From an uncultured Eubacteriales bacterium (lineage in GTDB: Bacteria; Bacillota; Clostridia; Christensenellales; QALW01): a DNA stretch of 64,000 nucleotides. The stretch lies in assembly GCA_900547955.1 (NCBI GenBank), contig URIR01000003.1:11711-75710 (forward strand), read 5' to 3'. A program made the position numbers and the translations under genes. Below, one piece after another: positions 6,740 to 43,039 of the stretch (positions are counted from its first letter, which is position 1; each line of letters starts with the position of its first letter). Below the pieces are notes generated by a model. The model searched no databases. It saw only the letters and a list, made by a program, of their open reading frames with translations, and was not told the origin of the DNA.

Positions 6740-6923
6740 AAAAAAGCCGCAAAACGCGCCGAATGCGGCAAAACGGTATGAAGCGGGAGGTTGCCGGAAT
6801 AATCCGGGTAATTTCCGCGGACAATTGTCCGATAATCGGACGACAGGCCAAATGGCCGCTTTAAAAATTTAAAAGCGGCACACACGGAAACGTGTATTTG
6901 AGCTTACAAGGAGGTTTATTTTA

Positions 6924-26996: not shown

Positions 26997-28322
26997 ATGC
27001 AGGATGCAAGTGAAATCTGGGCAAAGGTATCCGCCGTATTAAAAGAGACAAAGGAGATATCCAGCTTGGCCTATACTACCTGGCTTGCGTCTATAAAGCC
27101 GGCGCTTTTTCGGAACGACTGCCTATATCTGGTAGTACCCTCGGCGCTGCACCGAAATCATATTGTAGGAAACAGCAATTATAAAATATATATCAATACT
27201 GCGCTTAATATGGTCACGGGCAAGGAATGCTCTGTTGAGCTGCTGCTGGAGGGAGAAGTCAAGGATGTTATGCAGAGCGCCGTCCAGCCCAATAAATGGC
27301 CTATGCTCAACGACAAATATACCTTTGAAACCTTTGTTATAGGTCCCAGCAATCAGTTTGCCCAGGCGGCGGCTTTAAGCGTAGCCGAAGCGCCTGCTAC
27401 GCAGAATAACCCGCTTTTTATATACGGCGGCGTAGGGCTGGGCAAGACCCATTTAATGCATGCTATAGGCAACTATGTTTTGGAGCAGAATCCGGCTGTG
27501 CGCGTTTTATATACCACCTGTGAGAAATATACAAACGAATATATAGATTCCATACCTAAGAACCGGGTTGCAGCCTTTAGAGAGCATTACAGGAACAACG
27601 TGGATATTCTAATGATAGACGATATCCAGTTCCTCACCCGCAAGGAGCGTATTCAGGAGGAATTTTTCCATAATATTAACGAATTAGTATCGGCGAACAA
27701 GCAGATAATTATAACCAGCGACCGGCCGCCGCGGGATATAGCCACGCTGGAGGATAGGCTGCGCTCCCGCTTTGAGGGCGGATTGATAGTGGATATAACG
27801 CCGCCTGATTTGGAGACAAGAGTTGCTATTCTGCGCCTTAAGGCCGAGGCCTTTGGGGCGGTATTGGATAACGAGCTGCTGTTTTACATAGCCGAGCGGG
27901 CAAGCGACAACGTGCGCGAATTGGAAGGCTCTCTTAAGCGGGTTATAGCTTATTCCAGCATAATGGGGCAGGATATAACCTTTGAGCTGGTTTCGGAGGC
28001 TTTAAAGGACTATAACGCCGTACAGCAGCGCACCTTGACCGTGGATAAAATCATGGAGACGGTAGCGGAGTATTACGGCGTGGAGGTAGAGGAATTGGTG
28101 GGCAAAAAAAGAGACGCGGCTATAGTTATGCCCAGGCATATAGCTATGTATCTCTGCCGTGAGCATACCGACCTGTCTTTTCCCCGCATAGGAGACGAAT
28201 TTGGGGGCCGGGACCATTCTACCGTTATAAACGGCATAGGCAAGATACATCAGGCGCTTAAGACGGACCCTAAGGTAAAAACCTATGTGGAGGACATAGA
28301 GCGCCGGCTTCAAGGGGTTTAA
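26997..28322 (+). CDS. dnaA: Chromosomal replication initiator protein DnaA
   Basis: 441 aa; AAA+ Walker A GGVGLGKTHL; C-terminal DNA-binding domain DHSTVINGIGKI. Confidence 0.98.
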   Translation: MQDASEIWAKVSAVLKETKEISSLAYTTWLASIKPALFRNDCLYLVVPSALHRNHIVGNSNYKIYINTALNMVTGKECSVELLLEGEVKDVMQSAVQPNKWPMLNDKYTFETFVIGPSNQFAQAAALSVAEAPATQNNPLFIYGGVGLGKTHLMHAIGNYVLEQNPAVRVLYTTCEKYTNEYIDSIPKNRVAAFREHYRNNVDILMIDDIQFLTRKERIQEEFFHNINELVSANKQIIITSDRPPRDIATLEDRLRSRFEGGLIVDITPPDLETRVAILRLKAEAFGAVLDNELLFYIAERASDNVRELEGSLKRVIAYSSIMGQDITFELVSEALKDYNAVQQRTLTVDKIMETVAEYYGVEVEELVGKKRDAAIVMPRHIAMYLCREHTDLSFPRIGDEFGGRDHSTVINGIGKIHQALKTDPKVKTYVEDIERRLQGV

Positions 28323-33808: not shown

Positions 33809-34173
33809 TAAAGTTCCTCCTTATAATTTTAACTAAATTGAGAACTGAGCTGCCATGAGGGGTATTTTAAAAGCTGCTTTAGGGGGGCTGGCTCACCAGG
33901 CATTTTATCGGCGGAATAAGTTGAATTGCAGACATTGGCAGAGCGTCCGCGCTTTTATAACAGATACTTTAGCATATAACTAGGGAGGAGTACAGAGACG
34001 GATATAACTAACAAGGAGACAAAACTAACGCCGGGATAATATTTATCCCCTTGCCGACGGGGACAAAAAAGCGGAAGGCAAAAGGAAAGGATGCCTTGGG
34101 GCTGAGCGTTTTTTAAGAAAATGCAGAGGGACGGCAAGCAATGCCGTCCCGTTAAATATTTTTTATTTCATTA

Positions 34174-34492: not shown

Positions 34493-35677
34493 TTACAGCA
34501 GCTTATTAAGCCGCTTTACGGCCGCAAGGGTATTTTCATAGCTTCCGAAGGCGGTCAGGCGGAAATAGCCCTCGCCGTTTTTGCCGAAGCCTGCTCCGGG
34601 AGTGCCTGCAATCTGTGCGTTTTCCAGCAGATAGTCGAAGAATTCCCAGGAGTCCATATTATTGGGGCAGCGCATCCAGATATAGGGGGAGTTTTCGCCG
34701 CCGGTAAACCAGACGCCCTTAGCGCGCAGGCAGTCGGCTATTATGCTGGCGTTTTGCTTGTAATAGTGGATATTTGCCTTTATCTGGCGCTGGCCCTCGG
34801 GTGAAAATACGGCGGCGGCGCCCTTTTGCACTATATAGGACACCCCGTTGAACTTGGTGGTCTGACGGCGCAGCCAGAGCTTATTAATGCTTACGCCTTC
34901 CCGCTCCAGTTCCATGGGCACAATAGTGTAGCCGCAGCGGGTGCCGGTAAAGCCCGCGGTTTTGGAAAGGGAGCATATCTCTATGGCGCATGTGCGCGCG
35001 CCCTCTATTTCATAGATGGAGCGGGGCAGGTCGCCCTCTACAAAGGCCTCATAGGCGGCGTCAAAGAGGATTATGGCGTTTCGGGCGTTGGCATAGTCTA
35101 CCCAGGCTTTAAGCTGCTGACGGTTGTATACTGCGCCGGTGGGATTATTGGGAGAGCAGATATATATTACGTCCGCCTGTATGTTTTTATCCGGAAGGGG
35201 AAGGAAGCTATTTTCGCCGTTGGCGTCTATGTAATTTACCGTTCGGCCGTCCATTATGTTGACGTCTACATATGCCGGATATACAGGGTCGGGGATAAGG
35301 GCGGAGTTGGAACGGTCGAATAAATCAAGGATATTTCCCAAATCGCTTTTAGCTCCGTCGCTTATAAAAATTTCCGAATCCAAAAGGGAAACTCCCTTTT
35401 GCTGATAATAGCCTTTAATGCCGTTTTTCAAAAATTCATAGCCATAGGCCTGAGCGTCGGGGCCATAGCCATGAAAGGTTTCGGCCCGGCCCATCTCCTC
35501 TACGGCCTGAGCAAGGGCGTTAACAACCGCGGTGCACAATGGAAGGGTTACGTCTCCGATGCTGAGCTTTATAACGTCGGCGTCGGGGTGAGCTGATTTG
35601 TATTCGGCTATTTTTCTGCCCGTTTCGGCAAAGAGGTAGCTGTCTTTTACATCCAGATAGTGCTTATTGATTTTCAT
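34493..35677 (-). CDS. dapL: LL-diaminopimelate aminotransferase
   Basis: 394 aa. The N-terminus INKHYLDVKDSYLFAETGRKIAEY and the class-I aminotransferase body are typical of DapL. It lies adjacent to dapF. Confidence 0.88.
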   Translation of the reverse strand: MKINKHYLDVKDSYLFAETGRKIAEYKSAHPDADVIKLSIGDVTLPLCTAVVNALAQAVEEMGRAETFHGYGPDAQAYGYEFLKNGIKGYYQQKGVSLLDSEIFISDGAKSDLGNILDLFDRSNSALIPDPVYPAYVDVNIMDGRTVNYIDANGENSFLPLPDKNIQADVIYICSPNNPTGAVYNRQQLKAWVDYANARNAIILFDAAYEAFVEGDLPRSIYEIEGARTCAIEICSLSKTAGFTGTRCGYTIVPMELEREGVSINKLWLRRQTTKFNGVSYIVQKGAAAVFSPEGQRQIKANIHYYKQNASIIADCLRAKGVWFTGGENSPYIWMRCPNNMDSWEFFDYLLENAQIAGTPGAGFGKNGEGYFRLTAFGSYENTLAAVKRLNKLL

Positions 35678-35712: not shown

Positions 35713-35863
35713 GGGGGGCCGCCCCGCCCTTAAAAGGAGGGCGCGCCCTGGGGACGCTGGAATCTAACCGCTTAAGCGGAAACCGGTTTTTATTCGGACG
35801 CAGGCAATTTTGAGTCCGCGCCCGGCCCTTAAGGCGCGCACGTTCTGCGCGCGCCTTAAGGGC
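35713..35863. repeat. GC-rich palindrome cluster between dapF and dapL
   Basis: The motif is present in reverse orientation at 35713-35748. The palindrome ccgcttaagcgg is at 35769-35780. A 15-bp perfect stem gcccttaaggcgcgc / gcgcgccttaagggc spans 35825-35863. Confidence 0.8.
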
Positions 35864-36012: not shown

Positions 36013-39000
36013 TTACACCATAACCGTGCCGTCAAAGACCTTTACTGCGTTGCCTGTCATATACACCTCGCCCGTATCGGTATACCTTATCTTAAGCTCT
36101 CCGCCCAGCAGCTTAACGGTTATATCGGTATTTTTATCGCAGAGTCCGTTTTCTACGGCTGCTACGGCCGCCGCGCAGGCGCCTGTGCCGCAGGCCCAAG
36201 TTTCCCCGCTGCCCCGCTCCCAGACGCGCATTTTAAGAGTAGCGCGGTCTATAACCTTGACAAATTCGGCGTTGACCCTCTCGGGGAACAGCTCGCTGTG
36301 CTCAAACTGAGGACCAATCTTTTCCAGCGGGAAGAAATCTACGTTTTCAACAAATACTACGCAGTGGGGATTGCCCATGGAGACGCAGGTTATATGGTAA
36401 TTTTCCCCGCCTATATTTACCTGCCGGCCTATGACCTTATCTCCCTCTAATTTTACCGGCACCTCCTCCGGCCTGAGCTGCGCCGCGCCCATATTCACTC
36501 TGGCCGAGGTGGCTACGCCGTTCTGCGTATACACCCTTATGCTCTTTATGCCCGAAAGGGTTTCAAGGGTCATAACCTCTTTATTAACCATATGGTTGTC
36601 GTATAAATATTTGGCGACGCAGCGGGACGCATTGCCGCACATCCTGCCTTCGCTGCCGTCCAGATTGAACATGCGCATTTTGGCGTCCGCCTTGGAGGAG
36701 GGGCATATTAATACCACGCCGTCGCCTCCTACTCCGAAATGCCTGTCGGCCAGGCGTATGGACAGCCCCTCCGGGTTGTCTATATGCTGCTCAAAGGCGT
36801 TAAAATAGATATAGTCGTTTCCGCAGCCGTGCATCTTGGTGAACTTGAGCTGGGTGCGCTTGGTGCGCATATGGTTGATGTCCACCAGCTCGCAGTTCAA
36901 TTCGGAATAGCGGCTCTTTATGCTGTCGGCTACGGCGTGAGCCGTGTCTATGGAGGTCAGGCAGGGTATGCTGCGCTCTACCGCCTTGCGCCGTATTTTA
37001 ACGCTGTCCCTGCCGGGCAGGCGGCCTTTGGCGCTGGTGGAGATAAGATAGTCTATTTTGCCGCTCTCTATAAGGGTGAGGGTGTTGACGTCGCTTTCGT
37101 GTATCTTGCTGACTATCTCGGCCTCCATGCCTGAGGCCTTTATAATTTCAGCCGTGCCCGCCGTAGCGTATAATTTAAAGCCCAAATCATAGAATTTCTT
37201 GGCTACTGCCGCAATCTCGGGCTTATCAGAATCGCGCACCGAGAGGAATACGCCCTTTTTGGAGGAGCTGACCGCCTTGCGCAGCTTATAGCCCGCCGCA
37301 ATAAGCCCTTTATAAAGCGCTTCCTCCAGGGTTCCCGCCAAGCCCAGCACCTCGCCCGTGGATTTCATTTCGGGCCCAAGATGGCTGTCCACGTTGGCCA
37401 GCTTTTCAAAGGAGAATATGGGCACCTTAACCGCGAAATACGCGCCCTGGGGATAAAGCCCCGTGCCGTAGCCCATATCGTAGAGCTTTTCGCCCAGCAT
37501 GGCGCGGGTGGCCAGCGCCACCATGGGTACGCCCGTTACCTTGCTTATATAAGGCACGGTCCGGGAGGAGCGCGGGTTGACCTCTATTACATAAAGCTGG
37601 CCGTTATATATGACGTACTGGATGTTTATAAGCCCCTTGGTATTCAGAGCCAGAGCCAGGCGGCGGGTGCAGTCCACTATGCGGCTGACCATGCGGTCGC
37701 TTAAGTTGTAGGCGGGATATACGCTTATGGAATCGCCCGAATGCACGCCCGCCCGCTCTATATGTTCCATTATGCCGGGGATGAGTACGTCCTCCCCGTC
37801 GCAGATGCCGTCTACCTCTATTTCCAGCCCCATAAGGTATTTATCTATTAATACCGGATTCTCTATGCCCTGGGAGAGGATTATCTGCATGTATTCCCTG
37901 ACGTCCGAATCGTTAAAGGCGATTATCATATTCTGGCCGCCCAGCACATAGGAGGGACGCAGCAGCACGGGATAGCCTATTTCATTTGCGGCGGCCAGCG
38001 CGCCCTGAGCGTCGGTTACCGAATGCCCCTTGGGCCGCTCTATCTTTAATTCCTCCAGCAGTTCGTCAAAGCGTTCGCGGTCCTCCGCCCGGTCTATGCT
38101 GTCCGCGCTGGTGCCTAAAATGTTTTCTCCCCGTTCAGAAAGGAACCTGGTCAGCTTGATGGCCGTCTGGCCGCCGAAGGCTACTACGACGCCCCAGGGC
38201 TTTTCTGTTTCAAGCACGTTGCGCACGTCCTCGGGAGTGAGGGGTTCAAAATAAAGCCGGTCGGCGGTGTCAAAGTCGGTAGAGACGGTTTCGGGGTTGT
38301 TATTGACTATAACCACTTCAAAGCCGGCGTTTTTAAGCGCCCAGACGCAGTGCACCGAGGCGTAGTCAAATTCTATGCCCTGGCCTATCCGGATGGGGCC
38401 GGAGCCGAATACTATTACCGTCCGCTTGCGCTCGGGCAGCTCCTGAATAAATTCCTCAGCCTCGTTTTCCTCTTCAAAGGAGGAGTAGAAATAGGGGGTT
38501 TCGGCGCTGAATTCGGCCGCGCAGGTATCCACCATCTTAAATACCGCAACAGCGGGATTCTCTACCCTTTGCCCCGAAAATTCCTCTATGACGCTGTCTA
38601 AAAAGCCCATGCGCTTGGCGCGCAGGTAGGTCTCTCTGTCAAAGCCCTGCTTAAGGGTGTTTTCCATATCTATGATGTTTTGAATCTTATATAGGAACCA
38701 TAGGTCTATCTTGGTTATGTCGTGTATTTCCTCGGGGGAAACTCCCTTCCTGAGCGCGTCGGCCACGATAAACAGGCGCTCGTCGGTAGTTTCATGCAGG
38801 CGGGAGAGCGCTTCCTCCCGCGGCAGGTCGTATTTTTTGGAATAGAGGCTCTTAAGCCCTATTTCGGCGCCCCTTACCGCCTTTAGCAGGGCTTCTTCAA
38901 AGGTAACGCCTATGGCCATAACCTCGCCCGTGGCCTGCATCTGGGTGCCTAACTGGCGTTTGGCGTATACGAATTTATCAAAGGGCCATTTTGGCAGCTT

Positions 39001-40062
39001 AACTACTACGTAATCCAGCGCAGGCTCAAAGCAGGCGCTCTTGCCCGTTATGGCGTTGGCGATTTCGTTGAGATTATAGCCTATGGCTATCTTGGCGGCC
39101 ACCTTGGCTATGGGATAGCCCGTGGCCTTGGAGGCCAGCGCGCTGGAGCGGGATACGCGGGGATTGACCTCTATTACGGCGTATTCAAAGCTCTCGGGAT
39201 TGAGGGCGAACTGGCAGTTGCAGCCTCCCTCCACCTTTAGGGCGGAGATAATGTCCAGCGCCGCCGTGCGCAGCATCTGATATTCCTTATCGGCTAAGGT
39301 GACGGCGGGCGCGACTACTATTGAATCTCCCGTATGTATTCCTACGGGGTCTAAATTTTCCATGCTGCATATGGTTATAACGTTGCCTGCGCCGTCCCGC
39401 ATGACCTCGAATTCAATTTCCTTCCAGCCGGCAATGCATTTTTCCACCAGTATCTGGCCTATGGGGGAGAGCCTTAGGCCGTTGACGGCAATATCCGCCA
39501 TTTCCTCGTCGTTATTGACTATGCCGCCGCCGCTGCCGCCTAGTGTGAAAGCTGGGCGGATAATGAGGGGATAGCCTATTTCACGGGCGAAGGAGAGCGC
39601 GTCCTCAAGGGTGGTCACTACTCTGGAGGGAATGCAGGGCTGATTAATGCTCTGCATGGTGTCCTTAAACAGCTGGCGGTCCTCGGCTTTATCTATGGTT
39701 TCAGGATTGGCCCCCAGCAGGCGCACGCCCATCTGCTCCAAGAAGCCGTCCTTGGCTAACTGCATGGAGAGGGTCAGGCCCGTCTGGCCGCCTAAGGTGG
39801 AAAGCAGGCTGTCCGGGCGCTCCTTTTCTATTATGCGCTTTATTACGGGCAGGGTTAAAGGCTCGATATATATGCGGTCGGCCATAGCGCTGTCCGTCAT
39901 TATGGTGGCCGGATTGGAATTAACCAGGACTACCTCCAGGCCGTCCTCCTTAAGCGCGCGGCAGGCCTGGGTGCCCGCGTAGTCAAATTCGGCCGCCTGC
40001 CCTATGACAATGGGCCCGGAGCCTATAACCATGACTTTTTTTATGCTTTTGTTAAGCGGCAT
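36013..40062 (-). CDS. carB: Carbamoyl-phosphate synthase large subunit fused in frame to diaminopimelate epimerase
   Basis: Single 1349-aa ORF. Residues 1-1064 are a full-length CarB (two ATP-grasp halves plus an MGS-like tail). Residues 1065-1349 (nt 36870-36013) are a full DapF (FTKMHGCGNDY, GNASRC, ERGSGETWACGTGA). Confidence 0.93.
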   Translation of the reverse strand: MPLNKSIKKVMVIGSGPIVIGQAAEFDYAGTQACRALKEDGLEVVLVNSNPATIMTDSAMADRIYIEPLTLPVIKRIIEKERPDSLLSTLGGQTGLTLSMQLAKDGFLEQMGVRLLGANPETIDKAEDRQLFKDTMQSINQPCIPSRVVTTLEDALSFAREIGYPLIIRPAFTLGGSGGGIVNNDEEMADIAVNGLRLSPIGQILVEKCIAGWKEIEFEVMRDGAGNVITICSMENLDPVGIHTGDSIVVAPAVTLADKEYQMLRTAALDIISALKVEGGCNCQFALNPESFEYAVIEVNPRVSRSSALASKATGYPIAKVAAKIAIGYNLNEIANAITGKSACFEPALDYVVVKLPKWPFDKFVYAKRQLGTQMQATGEVMAIGVTFEEALLKAVRGAEIGLKSLYSKKYDLPREEALSRLHETTDERLFIVADALRKGVSPEEIHDITKIDLWFLYKIQNIIDMENTLKQGFDRETYLRAKRMGFLDSVIEEFSGQRVENPAVAVFKMVDTCAAEFSAETPYFYSSFEEENEAEEFIQELPERKRTVIVFGSGPIRIGQGIEFDYASVHCVWALKNAGFEVVIVNNNPETVSTDFDTADRLYFEPLTPEDVRNVLETEKPWGVVVAFGGQTAIKLTRFLSERGENILGTSADSIDRAEDRERFDELLEELKIERPKGHSVTDAQGALAAANEIGYPVLLRPSYVLGGQNMIIAFNDSDVREYMQIILSQGIENPVLIDKYLMGLEIEVDGICDGEDVLIPGIMEHIERAGVHSGDSISVYPAYNLSDRMVSRIVDCTRRLALALNTKGLINIQYVIYNGQLYVIEVNPRSSRTVPYISKVTGVPMVALATRAMLGEKLYDMGYGTGLYPQGAYFAVKVPIFSFEKLANVDSHLGPEMKSTGEVLGLAGTLEEALYKGLIAAGYKLRKAVSSSKKGVFLSVRDSDKPEIAAVAKKFYDLGFKLYATAGTAEIIKASGMEAEIVSKIHESDVNTLTLIESGKIDYLISTSAKGRLPGRDSVKIRRKAVERSIPCLTSIDTAHAVADSIKSRYSELNCELVDINHMRTKRTQLKFTKMHGCGNDYIYFNAFEQHIDNPEGLSIRLADRHFGVGGDGVVLICPSSKADAKMRMFNLDGSEGRMCGNASRCVAKYLYDNHMVNKEVMTLETLSGIKSIRVYTQNGVATSARVNMGAAQLRPEEVPVKLEGDKVIGRQVNIGGENYHITCVSMGNPHCVVFVENVDFFPLEKIGPQFEHSELFPERVNAEFVKVIDRATLKMRVWERGSGETWACGTGACAAAVAAVENGLCDKNTDITVKLLGGELKIRYTDTGEVYMTGNAVKVFDGTVMV

Positions 40063-40121: not shown

Positions 40122-41207
40122 TCATTTTTCCAGCATGGATACGAACCTGTCGAAGAGGAAGGCGGTATCCTTGGGCCCGGCCGAGGCCTCGGGATGGAAC
40201 TGTACCGAAAAGGCGGGCATATTAAGATAATCCACGCCCTCGCAGGTGCCGTCGTTGGCGTTAATAAAGGATACCCGCGCGTCTGAGGGCAGGCTGTCGT
40301 TCAGTACCGCGTAGCCGTGGTTCTGGCTGGTTATATATACTCTGCCCGTATCCGTTTGGGTGCAGGGCTGATTGGCGCCGCGGTGGCCGTATTTGAGCTT
40401 GCCCGTTTTGGCGCCCGCGGCCAGGGCGAGCAATTGATGTCCCAGGCATATGCCGAAAATAGGCAGTCCGCTTTTAAACAGCTTGCGCAGCTCTTTAATT
40501 ATGCCTGTGTTTTCGGCCGGGTCGCCGGGGCCGTTTGAGAGCATTATGCCCTGTGGGTTTGCGGCCAAAATATCTTCTGCCGTGCTGGAGGCGGGCATTA
40601 CCTTTACGCGGCAGCCGCGCTTGAGTAATTCCCGTTCTATATTGAGCTTGGCTCCGAAATCCCAGAGCGCTATCAGCGGCCCGCTTTGGGGCTGCTCTAA
40701 ATGGGGCTGGGGCAGGGCGCTTACGCTGCTTACCGCTCCCTTTATGGAGAAATTGCGCAATTGGGCTAAAAGGGCCTCGTCCGCGTCGGGGGTAAAGCTT
40801 AATTTAGCGTTCATGACCCCCTGCTCGCGCACTATGCGGGTAAGGGCCCGGGTATCTATGCCGTAAAGGCCGGGAATGCCTGCCTGTTTTAAAAAAGCGT
40901 CAAGCCGGCCTTCCGAACGGAAATTTGAAGGCTGCTGACACCACTCTCTGACGATATATGCCTTTAAAACGGGACGGGCGCTTTCAAAATCAATGGGGAT
41001 AACGCCGTAATTGCCTATAAGCGGAAAGGTCTGAATTACTAATTGGCCGTAATAGCTTGGGTCGGTTAGAGTTTCCAAATAGCCGGTCATGGCGGTGGTA
41101 AAAACTAATTCGCCTATTGCCTCGGCCTCCTTTCCGAAGAAATATCCCTGAAAAATTCTGCCGTTTTCCAGTATTAGATAACCCCTGCGGGCTTCCTGCT
41201 CCTGCAT
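40122..41207 (-). CDS. carA: Carbamoyl-phosphate synthase small (glutaminase) subunit
   Basis: 361 aa; GATase triad region GICLGHQ...HPE. Confidence 0.96.
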   Translation of the reverse strand: MQEQEARRGYLILENGRIFQGYFFGKEAEAIGELVFTTAMTGYLETLTDPSYYGQLVIQTFPLIGNYGVIPIDFESARPVLKAYIVREWCQQPSNFRSEGRLDAFLKQAGIPGLYGIDTRALTRIVREQGVMNAKLSFTPDADEALLAQLRNFSIKGAVSSVSALPQPHLEQPQSGPLIALWDFGAKLNIERELLKRGCRVKVMPASSTAEDILAANPQGIMLSNGPGDPAENTGIIKELRKLFKSGLPIFGICLGHQLLALAAGAKTGKLKYGHRGANQPCTQTDTGRVYITSQNHGYAVLNDSLPSDARVSFINANDGTCEGVDYLNMPAFSVQFHPEASAGPKDTAFLFDRFVSMLEK

Positions 41208-41248: not shown

Positions 41249-41812
41249 CTATTTTTCATACGCCTTGAGAATGCTCTGGGCGATATCCAGGCGCGTCCGG
41301 CGCAAATCCATGGCCTGCTTTTCAATGTAACGGTGAGCCTGCGGCTCAGTCATATCAGCATATTGTATCAGAGCGCACTTAGCTCTGTCAACTAGTCTTA
41401 TTTCTGCAATTTTTTCCTGAAGGCGCTCATTTTCGCTTTTTAAACGGCTTATCATATGTCTGGACGCATTTAAAAGATGAAGCGCCTGAAAGAACAGCGC
41501 GCGGTTTAAGGGCTTGGGCACCACCAGCACTCCGGCGTTTTCCACTCTGGCGGCTATTTCGTCGCTCATTTCATTTTTAACGAGCATTATAACGCCCGAG
41601 CCAATTTCGGCCGCGTCCAGAGCCAGCTCCAGGCCCGTTTCCTCCTTGAGCGGCGCGTTTATCAGAACCAAATCAAACGCGCAGGAAAGCATGCGCCGGG
41701 CCTGAAAGGAATCTGCGGTGCATTCAATTCTCTGATAATCGGTCTGCCCGAAAAGCGATTTGAGCACGGGCAGGCTGGCGCTGCTGCCCGAAATTATAAG
41801 CAGCTCGCCCAC
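41249..41812 (-). CDS. ANTAR-domain RNA-binding regulator with pseudo-receiver domain
   Basis: 187 aa with a GTG start. The C-terminal ANTAR pattern is LVDRAKCALIQYADMTEPQAHRYIEKQAMDLRRTR. The receiver-like N-terminus has N where the phospho-acceptor Asp is expected (DLVLINAPL). Confidence 0.85.
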   Translation of the reverse strand: MGELLIISGSSASLPVLKSLFGQTDYQRIECTADSFQARRMLSCAFDLVLINAPLKEETGLELALDAAEIGSGVIMLVKNEMSDEIAARVENAGVLVVPKPLNRALFFQALHLLNASRHMISRLKSENERLQEKIAEIRLVDRAKCALIQYADMTEPQAHRYIEKQAMDLRRTRLDIAQSILKAYEK

Positions 41813-41815
41813 CTC

Positions 41816-43039
41816 TCAGCCCTCCGTTTTGCCGCCCGTTATGCGGGCCAGATAATTTTTGTAAAGCAGGGGGGGCATATTTTGAGTTATCAGCGGGCTT
41901 TTCAGAGAACGGCGGGCCGCCTCGGAGAGGCTTAATGGAAGCGCGCTTATGGGCTGCGCTTCAGGCCGGGCCTCGCGCTTTATGCCGTCCAGGCCGGCCA
42001 GTATAACTGCTGAAAGAGCCAGATATGGATTGCAAAGCGGGTCGGGAGAGCGCAATTCCAGCCTGACGTTTTCGCCCGAGGCGGCGGGGATGCGGATTAT
42101 TTTAGAGCGGGCGCCCCTTTCAAAGCCTAAAAAATGAGGGGAGCTGAGGGCGCTTAAGCGCTTATAGGAGAGGGGAGAGGGATTTAAAAAGGCGGTGATA
42201 TCCCCGATATTTTCCAGTATGCCCGCCATAAAGCTCTCAGCCTGAGGGCAATGGCCGTCTGAAGCCGCTTTAAATATATTCTTGCCCTCCTTAAAGAGAG
42301 AAAGATTAAAATGCAGTCCGCTGCCCGGCGCGTTTTCAAGGGGCATGGGTTCAAAGCTGGCGTGCAGCCCGCTGCGCGCGGCGGCGGTGCTTATCACCCA
42401 TTTGACGGTTATAAGCCTGTCCGCCGTGGTCAGGGCGTCGTTATATTTAAAGTCTATTTCGTTCTGCCCCGGCCCCTTTTCGTGATGGGAGCTTTCGGGC
42501 GGGATGCCCATATCCTCTAAGGTAAGGCAGATATCCCTGCGCACGTTTTCTCCTCTGTCTAGTGGGGAGACGTCCATATAGCCCGCCAGGTCCAACGGCT
42601 GGTTGGTATTCATGCCGTGCTCGTCCAGCTTAAAAAGATAAAATTCGCATTCTGCGCCCGCCTTGACAGCATAGCCTGCTTCTGCGGCCTGATTTTGAAC
42701 GGCAGAGAGCAGACTGCGGCAGTCTCCCTCAAAGGGTTTGCCCGAGGGATATTTTATATTGCACATAAATCGCGCCACCCGTCCGTGGGATGGGCGCCAG
42801 GGGAGTATGGAGAGGGTGGAGGCGTCGGGGCAGAGGAAGAGGTCGCCGGTCACGGCGTTTTCAAAGCCGGGAACGGAAAATGCGTCCAGAGCTATGCCTT
42901 TTTCAAAGGCCCGTTCCAATTCGCCGGGCATTATGGAAATATTTTTCTGTCTGCCTGTTAAATCGCAGAAGGCCAGGCGAATAAATTTAACGTCGTTTTC
43001 CTTGACGAATTGCAGTATTTCGTTAATTTTATAGGTCAT
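41816..43039 (-). CDS. glnA: Glutamine synthetase family protein (short, divergent type I-like)
   Basis: 407 aa with GS catalytic-domain motifs (HHEKGPGQNEIDF, GSGLHFNLSL, ELRSPDPLCNPYLA). It is shorter than the canonical ~440-aa GlnA and diverges around the SYKRL segment. Confidence 0.85.
   Translation of the reverse strand: MTYKINEILQFVKENDVKFIRLAFCDLTGRQKNISIMPGELERAFEKGIALDAFSVPGFENAVTGDLFLCPDASTLSILPWRPSHGRVARFMCNIKYPSGKPFEGDCRSLLSAVQNQAAEAGYAVKAGAECEFYLFKLDEHGMNTNQPLDLAGYMDVSPLDRGENVRRDICLTLEDMGIPPESSHHEKGPGQNEIDFKYNDALTTADRLITVKWVISTAAARSGLHASFEPMPLENAPGSGLHFNLSLFKEGKNIFKAASDGHCPQAESFMAGILENIGDITAFLNPSPLSYKRLSALSSPHFLGFERGARSKIIRIPAASGENVRLELRSPDPLCNPYLALSAVILAGLDGIKREARPEAQPISALPLSLSEAARRSLKSPLITQNMPPLLYKNYLARITGGKTEG

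Follow-up and report, generated by a model that had tools for sequence, protein, structure and literature searches.

In a 64,000-nucleotide stretch of DNA from an uncultured Eubacteriales bacterium, a gut member of the Clostridia (contig URIR01000003.1, positions 11,711 to 75,710; hereafter the window), CarB, the large subunit of carbamoyl-phosphate synthase, and DapF, the diaminopimelate epimerase, are encoded by one open reading frame. This carB::dapF fusion is real, old, and widely conserved; it joins two known, otherwise ordinary enzymes of unrelated pathways, and it is already present in the databases, where it is mislabelled as CarB. The explanation that best accommodates our results, and that we hold to be likely as a whole, is that the gene encodes a genuine bifunctional CarB–DapF polypeptide, that DapF is made only as part of it, and that the fusion arose once, by loss of the carB stop codon; included in that same, joint judgment is the prediction that the CarB half acts as a synthase large subunit with the product of the adjacent carA gene. 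No description of a CarB–DapF fusion was found in the searchable literature, including a check of preprints, and the architecture is apparently undescribed.

An earlier reading of this DNA, made from the sequence alone (the sequence-only reading), had proposed that a full-length CarB of about 1064 residues continues in frame into a complete DapF, giving a product of 1349 residues, and our analysis bears this out. Specifically, positions 36013..40062 of the minus strand hold a single ATG-started frame of 1349 codons plus a TAA stop, with no stop codon or frameshift inside it or at the junction, and both of its domains score above the cut-offs of their equivalog models. The CarB part (residues 1–1064; 36871..40062, minus strand) comprises two ATP-grasp halves, an oligomerization domain, and an MGS-like allosteric domain. 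It matches the CarB equivalog NF003671 with 1479 bits (cut-off 599), residues 1–1051 falling on model positions 1–1049 of 1058, and in the domain scan it matches TIGR01369 with 1426 bits (cut-off 1027); the Pfam families PF25596 and PF02786, each found twice, PF02787, and PF02142 complete the large-chain set together with the MGS domain. The residues of the allosteric domain that align with Escherichia coli K954, T974, T977, K993, and T1016/T1017, which have a role in nucleotide binding in the E. coli enzyme, are conserved. A linker of seven residues follows (MRTKRTQ, residues 1065–1071; 36850..36870, minus strand), the length of which is invariant in the clade, and leads into the DapF core (residues 1072–1349; 36016..36849, minus strand). 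The core consists of two DAP_epimerase repeats, PF01678 matching it in two stretches; the DapF equivalog TIGR00652 scores 299 bits over residues 1073–1347 (cut-off 114.65), and the closest solved structure for this C-terminal part is DapF 2otn (E=1.9e-83). Alignment with solved DapF structures places the catalytic cysteine pair, the equivalents of Cys73 and Cys217, at Cys1142 (motif MCGNA; codon 36637..36639, minus strand), which aligns with the cysteine preceding GNG in those structures, and at Cys1291 (motif WACGTG; codon 36190..36192, minus strand). Among 68 full-length sequences, the two positions are Cys in 63 and 66 fused homologues, respectively. Of the two catalytic contexts named in the sequence-only reading, ACGTGA is that of Cys1291, whereas GNASRC contains a neighboring cysteine, Cys1148, and not the catalytic one. 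Judged by their sequences, both halves are ordinary members of their enzyme families, and because both cysteines are intact, a working epimerase is the default prediction for the window DapF.

Were the fusion an artefact, two separate genes would have been joined by an error of sequencing or assembly that deleted a stop codon or caused a frameshift. We rejected this explanation, the probability of which we consider negligible. An identical 1349-residue protein was called on at least 12 metagenome contigs of independent assembly, from differing samples and assemblers, all with the same gene order, and the 90%-identity cluster that contains the window protein has 191 members, of which nearly all of those listed are 1349 residues long and which carry the NCBI label 'carbamoyl phosphate synthase large subunit' (PWL97091.1, HJA68984.1). 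The third-position G+C content (GC3) is also even across the halves (0.68 and 0.66), a likeness of composition that in addition led us to reject a horizontal insertion of dapF. Moreover, the fusion recurs in other genomes, where the sequence-only reading had proposed to look for it. With one genome scanned for each GTDB species, 575 related stretches were obtained, and in all of the best 80 (60–72% identity), which were examined, the C terminus of CarB and DapF lie in a single frame. Full-length frames of about 1350 residues are present at 67 of these 80 loci, the remainder being interrupted by contig ends or by an upstream break, and 16 further fused loci were found in metagenome contigs. The junction is open in Ruminococcus, Acutalibacteraceae, Oscillospiraceae, Christensenellaceae, and Saccharofermentans, and the genomes in which it is open include those of the isolates Ruminococcus sp. 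FC2018, Ruminococcus sp. zg-924, and R. bicirculans. When the last 135 residues of CarB together with DapF were used as a query, the top 120 matches, R. bicirculans among them, all spanned the junction at 63 to 94% identity and combined the MGS and DAP_epimerase domains. Mean identity to the window protein is 74% for the CarB half and 65% for the DapF half. The fusion is an old architecture that is widespread in its clade and common to about a hundred related species, and it is not particular to this genome.

The junction itself preserves what appears to be a record of how the two genes were joined. E. coli CarB residues 945–1057 align with window residues 938–1051, and the E. coli protein has 16 more residues, which places the end of CarB proper at about residue 1064–1067. 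The N terminus of unfused DapF, M-K-(L-K)-F-T-K-M-H-G, corresponds to window residues 1070–1072 onward, that is, to linker position +5 to +7 (counted from Met1065), which leaves a linker of about 5–7 residues. Positions 1040–1090 of the 68 full-length sequences are free of insertions and deletions, although indels affect eleven sites elsewhere. The motif T-E-[LI]-[VI]-[DN]-I-N-x-[ML]-R is nearly invariant, and column conservation over positions 1056–1066 is 0.87. The pattern found in the linkers of many relatives is ATG AGG AGx GAx AAA ATG/GTG AAx CTx AAA TTT, in which an AGGAG motif is followed by a spacer of 7–8 nt, a start codon at +5, and then MKLKFTKM as in unfused DapFs. In the 81 species on which the linker codon counts are based, position +5 is Met in 32, and pairing of -6 kcal/mol or stronger with the anti-Shine-Dalgarno sequence precedes it in 22, versus 10% of background ATGs (p=1e-5). 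On the strength of this pattern, of the DapF-like residues that follow it, and of the enriched pairing, the linker is most readily interpreted as a vestige, now translated, of the ribosome-binding site and start codon that dapF once had. The corresponding site in the window is completely eroded (CGC ACC AAG CGC ACC, with Thr at +5 and a pairing energy of +0.5 kcal/mol). The sequence-only reading had placed the start of DapF at the ATG at 36870, which is the codon of Met1065 (36868–36870, within the junction codons GAC ATC AAC CAT ATG CGC ACC, DINH-MRT); the ancestral start probably lay five codons further on, where the window now encodes Thr. Arg is found at linker position +1 in 77 of the 81 species and is specified by either AGR or CGN codons, so the linker is now constrained at the level of protein. 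Linkers that begin ATG-AGG or TTA-AGG hold an out-of-frame TGA or TAA immediately 5′ of the AGGAG, and it is a matter of speculation that this was the carB stop codon, in which case a one-base frameshift would also have taken place. One DapF-like protein of 289 residues (P0133), which lacks the first catalytic cysteine (Cys to Ala), starts with MDINALRT, the junction motif as it would look after a start call at a V-to-M change; it probably results from a gene call within a further lineage of fused, cysteine-substituted proteins.

The sequence-only reading had allowed for DapF being made as a fusion, by internal initiation, or both; of these, fusion alone is the better supported option for this organism, where the signals for internal initiation are eroded; some relatives have Leu codons at the proposed start. 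If ribosomes also began at the ATG at 36870 or nearby, free DapF would be made besides the fusion or mainly instead of it. That codon is ATG in 67 of the 81 species, it is preceded in the window by a GGTGGA 10 nt upstream that is weak, as the earlier reading had it (duplex energy with the anti-Shine-Dalgarno sequence, -4.9 kcal/mol), and the 22 relatives with a good Shine-Dalgarno-like sequence before position +5 have an ATG, a GTG, or another codon there. Against this stand the Thr at +5 and the eroded relic of the window, as well as the behavior of the Met1065 position across the clade. Pairing in the 18 nt upstream of it averages -2.5 kcal/mol, which is no stronger than that of random internal ATGs (-3.0 kcal/mol over 2084 ATGs inside CarB) and compares with -8.7 kcal/mol at true carB starts. 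In 14 species the Met is replaced by Leu, and always by codons that do not serve as starts (CTG 6, TTA 4, CTC 2, CTT 2; TTG none); in 10 species the linker is devoid of in-frame ATG, GTG, and TTG codons, and the DapF domains are conserved regardless. A conserved internal ribosome-binding site at Met1065 was rejected on these grounds, and the conserved Shine-Dalgarno sequence with a start codon that a translationally coupled second cistron would have was found neither in the window nor across the 81 species as a group. The existence of two products is, in our estimate, improbable. The poor pairing, the Leu codons, and the species that lack a start codon in the linker point instead to synthesis of DapF as part of a chain of about 150 kDa, and it is most likely that this organism makes DapF only within that fusion, which is probably obligate here.

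A further possibility is that the fusion is a polyprotein, in which the junction motif TELVDIN-x-(M/L)-R would be a processing site at which the chain is cleaved after translation into CarB and DapF. The junction is indeed unusually conserved, as described above, and it is poorly ordered in the AlphaFold prediction. No protease or autoprocessing motif was recognized in it, however, and the TELVDIN stretch lines up, gap-free, with the natural C-terminal end of E. coli CarB, so its conservation may simply reflect the structure of CarB. In addition, a 'carbamoyl-phosphate synthase large subunit' of 1,350 residues is a prominent spot above 60 kDa, of unreported mass, on two-dimensional gels of Ruminococcus bromii L2-63 (PMC4611034, Table 3). 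The match of this protein to the fusion is one of length, and would imply that the fusion is abundantly expressed. Processing of this kind seems to us very improbable, and only an assembly artefact is less credible. In the uncleaved window protein, the tryptic peptide predicted to span the junction is YSELNCELVDINHMR.

In a neighbor-joining tree of 157 DapF domains, all 97 distinct fused domains fall into one clade, with 8 unfused domains nested inside it, which suggests a single origin of the fusion followed by later fissions. Outside this clade, unfused dapF is typically followed by dapL, either adjacent or overlapping. In the fused loci, carA lies directly upstream in every related locus with room for it among the 80, and about 45 of the 80 have a co-oriented dapL downstream, which in about 25 is adjacent; this agrees with the earlier suggestion that a dapF–dapL pair was welded onto carAB. 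An unfused carB–stop–dapF arrangement, as a precursor would have, was looked for among the unfused dapF loci and not found: the unfused dapF genes within the fused clade all look secondary, and those outside it pair with dapL, not with carB. The history that we propose begins with a single event in the ancestor of a large clade of Clostridia (Oscillospirales/Christensenellales-like lineages), in which a dapF or dapF–dapL unit would have come to lie just downstream of carAB and the carB stop codon would have been lost, the former ribosome-binding site and start codon of dapF being turned into the linker. In the resulting chain of about 150 kDa, the allosteric domain of CarB would run via the fixed seven-residue linker into an active diaminopimelate epimerase, which in this organism, having no translation start of its own, would be made only as part of the chain. 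The two chemistries would be independent of each other, and the fusion would persist by enforcing co-expression and be hard to undo, since DapF has lost its own start signals.

Several side lineages show other arrangements of these genes, the first two of which are counted among the later fissions. At three loci (L078, 3419–5181; L086, 4802–6609; L089, 5041–6834) a free-standing second dapF follows directly after carB::dapF; both copies have both cysteines, and the fused copy reads KMSACSNDY in place of KMHGCGNDY. At two others (L091, 3774–5685; L165, 7–1379), an unfused dapF with a linker-like N terminus (MAKERVRLDFTKMHG) comes right after carA and there is no carB in the locus, suggesting deletion of the CarB part. 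In two proteins of 692 and 742 residues (P0216 and P0253), an intact DapF is preceded by a motif resembling the junction and, before that, by a decayed, noncatalytic remnant of the CarB N terminus. This remnant starts MPLN..KKV, has lost its GSGP glycine loop, and shares about 25% identity with CarB residues 1–340. Such an arrangement is what one would predict if DapF relied on the start of carB.

Multienzyme chains that contain a carbamoyl-phosphate synthase are known in eukaryotic CAD and fungal URA2, and the partners in CAD catalyze consecutive steps of pyrimidine synthesis. The window protein is likewise a synthase fusion, but its partner does not catalyze an adjacent step of the same pathway, DapF being an enzyme of the lysine/peptidoglycan pathway; the sequence-only reading had likewise held the two pathways to be unrelated. 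With E. coli carbamoyl-phosphate synthase (CarAB; PDB 1BXR and 1JDB) the window protein shares the full domain set, an adjacent carA, and the equivalents of K954, T974, T977, and K993 in the allosteric domain. In contrast, E. coli CarB ends at about the point where the linker of the window protein starts, and the window chain adds 285 residues that extend into DapF. The similarity to stand-alone DapFs (Bacillus anthracis 2OTN, Haemophilus influenzae 1GQZ) extends to the two repeats and both cysteines. These enzymes start at linker position +5 to +7 (MKLKFTKMHG), whereas the window DapF has no start signals and is joined at its N terminus to CarB. The window protein is also distinct from the chlamydial bifunctional DapF/glutamate racemase (NF038284), for which it scores 112.9 bits, below the cut-off of 350. 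Two other DapF proteins with extended architectures were noticed: one of 776 residues (P0249) in which DapF is fused to a MurE-like Mur ligase, a joining of consecutive peptidoglycan steps unlike that of CarB and DapF, and one of 687 residues (P0142) in which DapF stands behind an N-terminal region of about 400 residues without a Pfam match.

Beyond its predicted catalysis, the DapF module may have come to serve the synthase structurally or as a regulator. One or both catalytic cysteines are replaced in 8 of the 97 fused domains: four species combine Cys-to-Ser with Cys-to-Ala (L060, L077, L081, L098), and single or double changes occur in four more (L055, L079, L082, L112). These domains retain the other family-invariant active-site motifs (GNDY, MFN, GN, GNPH, VNxEF, and WERG), and among L077, L081, and L060 the ratio of nonsynonymous to synonymous substitution rates (dN/dS) of the dead DapF domain is 0.06–0.08, equal to that of the adjacent CarB segment and a sign of strong purifying selection. 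The cysteine-replaced module thus has the appearance of a pseudo-epimerase domain conserved on CarB, and the maintenance of its motifs at such a low dN/dS despite the loss of the cysteines hints at a retained, noncatalytic role in these lineages. Loss of cysteines was not significantly more frequent in fused than in unfused DapFs (8 of 97 versus 1 of 60; Fisher p=0.15). E. coli DapF is an activating, allosteric protein partner of RppH (PMC4227774, PMC6061791), a precedent for DapF as a regulatory binding partner. The species with the Ser and Ala replacements, the keeping of a fused copy beside a free dapF, the invariant length of the linker, and the RppH precedent together raise the idea that DapF is an integral, partly noncatalytic part of the synthase, a dimerization or diaminopimelate-sensing domain that is attached to the allosteric domain and tunes the assembly or activity of the enzyme. 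We regard this as unlikely. If it were true, a textbook allosteric enzyme would have acquired a new kind of regulation, and a module that senses diaminopimelate would link cell-wall and lysine precursor status to the supply of carbamoyl phosphate.

At the other extreme, the fusion may be a frozen accident without any benefit, retained because its reversal needs a new stop codon, a new ribosome-binding site, and a new start codon simultaneously. The two pathways have no intermediate in common, secondary fissions by duplication or deletion did occur (the free copies at L086 and L089; carA followed by dapF at L091 and L165), and structure prediction gave no confident interface. AlphaFold models were made of residues 931–1349 and 553–1349 as truncated monomers from shallow alignments; the domains are confident, the predicted template modeling (pTM) scores are 0.67 and 0.58, the per-residue confidence (pLDDT) at the junction ranges from below 50 to 68, and the relative orientation of the domains is of low confidence. 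A mere accident is, however, harder to reconcile with a linker that is invariant in length and conserved in sequence at the protein level, with catalytically dead DapF domains held under the constraint described above, and with the fused copy having been retained at loci that also carry a free dapF right behind it. We think it rather unlikely, if less so than a DapF module that is integral to the synthase.

Several points weigh against the explanation that we prefer, a bifunctional chain of single origin as the only source of DapF. For this organism, the production of DapF solely as a fusion is a prediction from sequence, and the ATG at 36870 with its GGTGGA could allow ribosomes to initiate there at a low level. 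Roughly one in four of the relatives, moreover, still has a plausible internal Shine-Dalgarno sequence with an ATG or GTG at +5, and these may make free DapF too. The neighbor-joining tree carries no support values. No second dapF or carB was found inside the 64-kb window, to which the search was limited, and a defined CarB–DapF interface is not supported by the truncated monomer models.

The fusion has practical consequences for genome annotation. In a major group of gut and rumen Clostridia to which Ruminococcus species belong, the sole recognizable DapF nearby is hidden in a protein named "carbamoyl-phosphate synthase large subunit". As a result, the enzyme can escape automated reconstruction of metabolism, and gaps in lysine or peptidoglycan synthesis may be predicted wrongly; fragments of the fused protein are labelled "diaminopimelate epimerase, partial" in the databases. 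The 285-residue extension of CarB is just as easily overlooked. In terms of protein evolution, the locus would provide a clean, datable case of two genes fused through the loss of a stop codon: the ribosome-binding site and start codon of the former dapF are apparently still legible in the linker, and side lineages show both fission, through duplication or deletion, and the decay of one half or the other.

The genes around the fusion lie on the same strand in the order glnA (41816–43039), a gene for an ANTAR response regulator (41249–41812), carA (40122..41207), carB::dapF, and dapL (34493..35677), all on the minus strand; glnA and the regulator gene, both upstream of carA, were identified by Pfam. 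The carA product, the synthase small subunit, carries PF00988 and PF00117, and its gene ends 59 nt upstream of the fused gene. The LL-diaminopimelate aminotransferase gene dapL, which the sequence-only reading had also recognized downstream, scores 505 bits with TIGR03542, lies 335 nt downstream of the fused gene, and has a ribosome-binding site of its own (AAAGGAG). Because the order of glnA and the ANTAR regulator gene before carA recurs in many related loci, it suggests that the carA–carB::dapF(–dapL) cluster is under nitrogen-responsive antitermination control. The scan for promoters and terminators gave counts not above those in shuffled sequence, and its sole useful feature was a terminator-like hairpin with a T tract after dapL (34128..34150, minus strand); no terminator was found between dapF and dapL on the strand of the fused gene, and the Rfam scan of the window gave no riboswitch or leader in the carA–carB::dapF–dapL operon. 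The 335-nt spacer between dapF and dapL contains a perfect 17-bp GC-rich hairpin (35825–35863, minus strand; GCCCUUAAGGCGCGCGC...GCGCGCGCCUUAAGGGC) without a U tract, and the spacer, which has no Rfam match, folds more stably than its shuffles (z=-2.3); the hairpin might act on the processing or the stability of the transcript between carB::dapF and dapL. The only Rfam match in the window is an S10-Clostridia ribosomal-protein leader (6770–6843, plus strand). The window also contains dnaA (26997–28322, plus strand), which places the locus near the replication origin.

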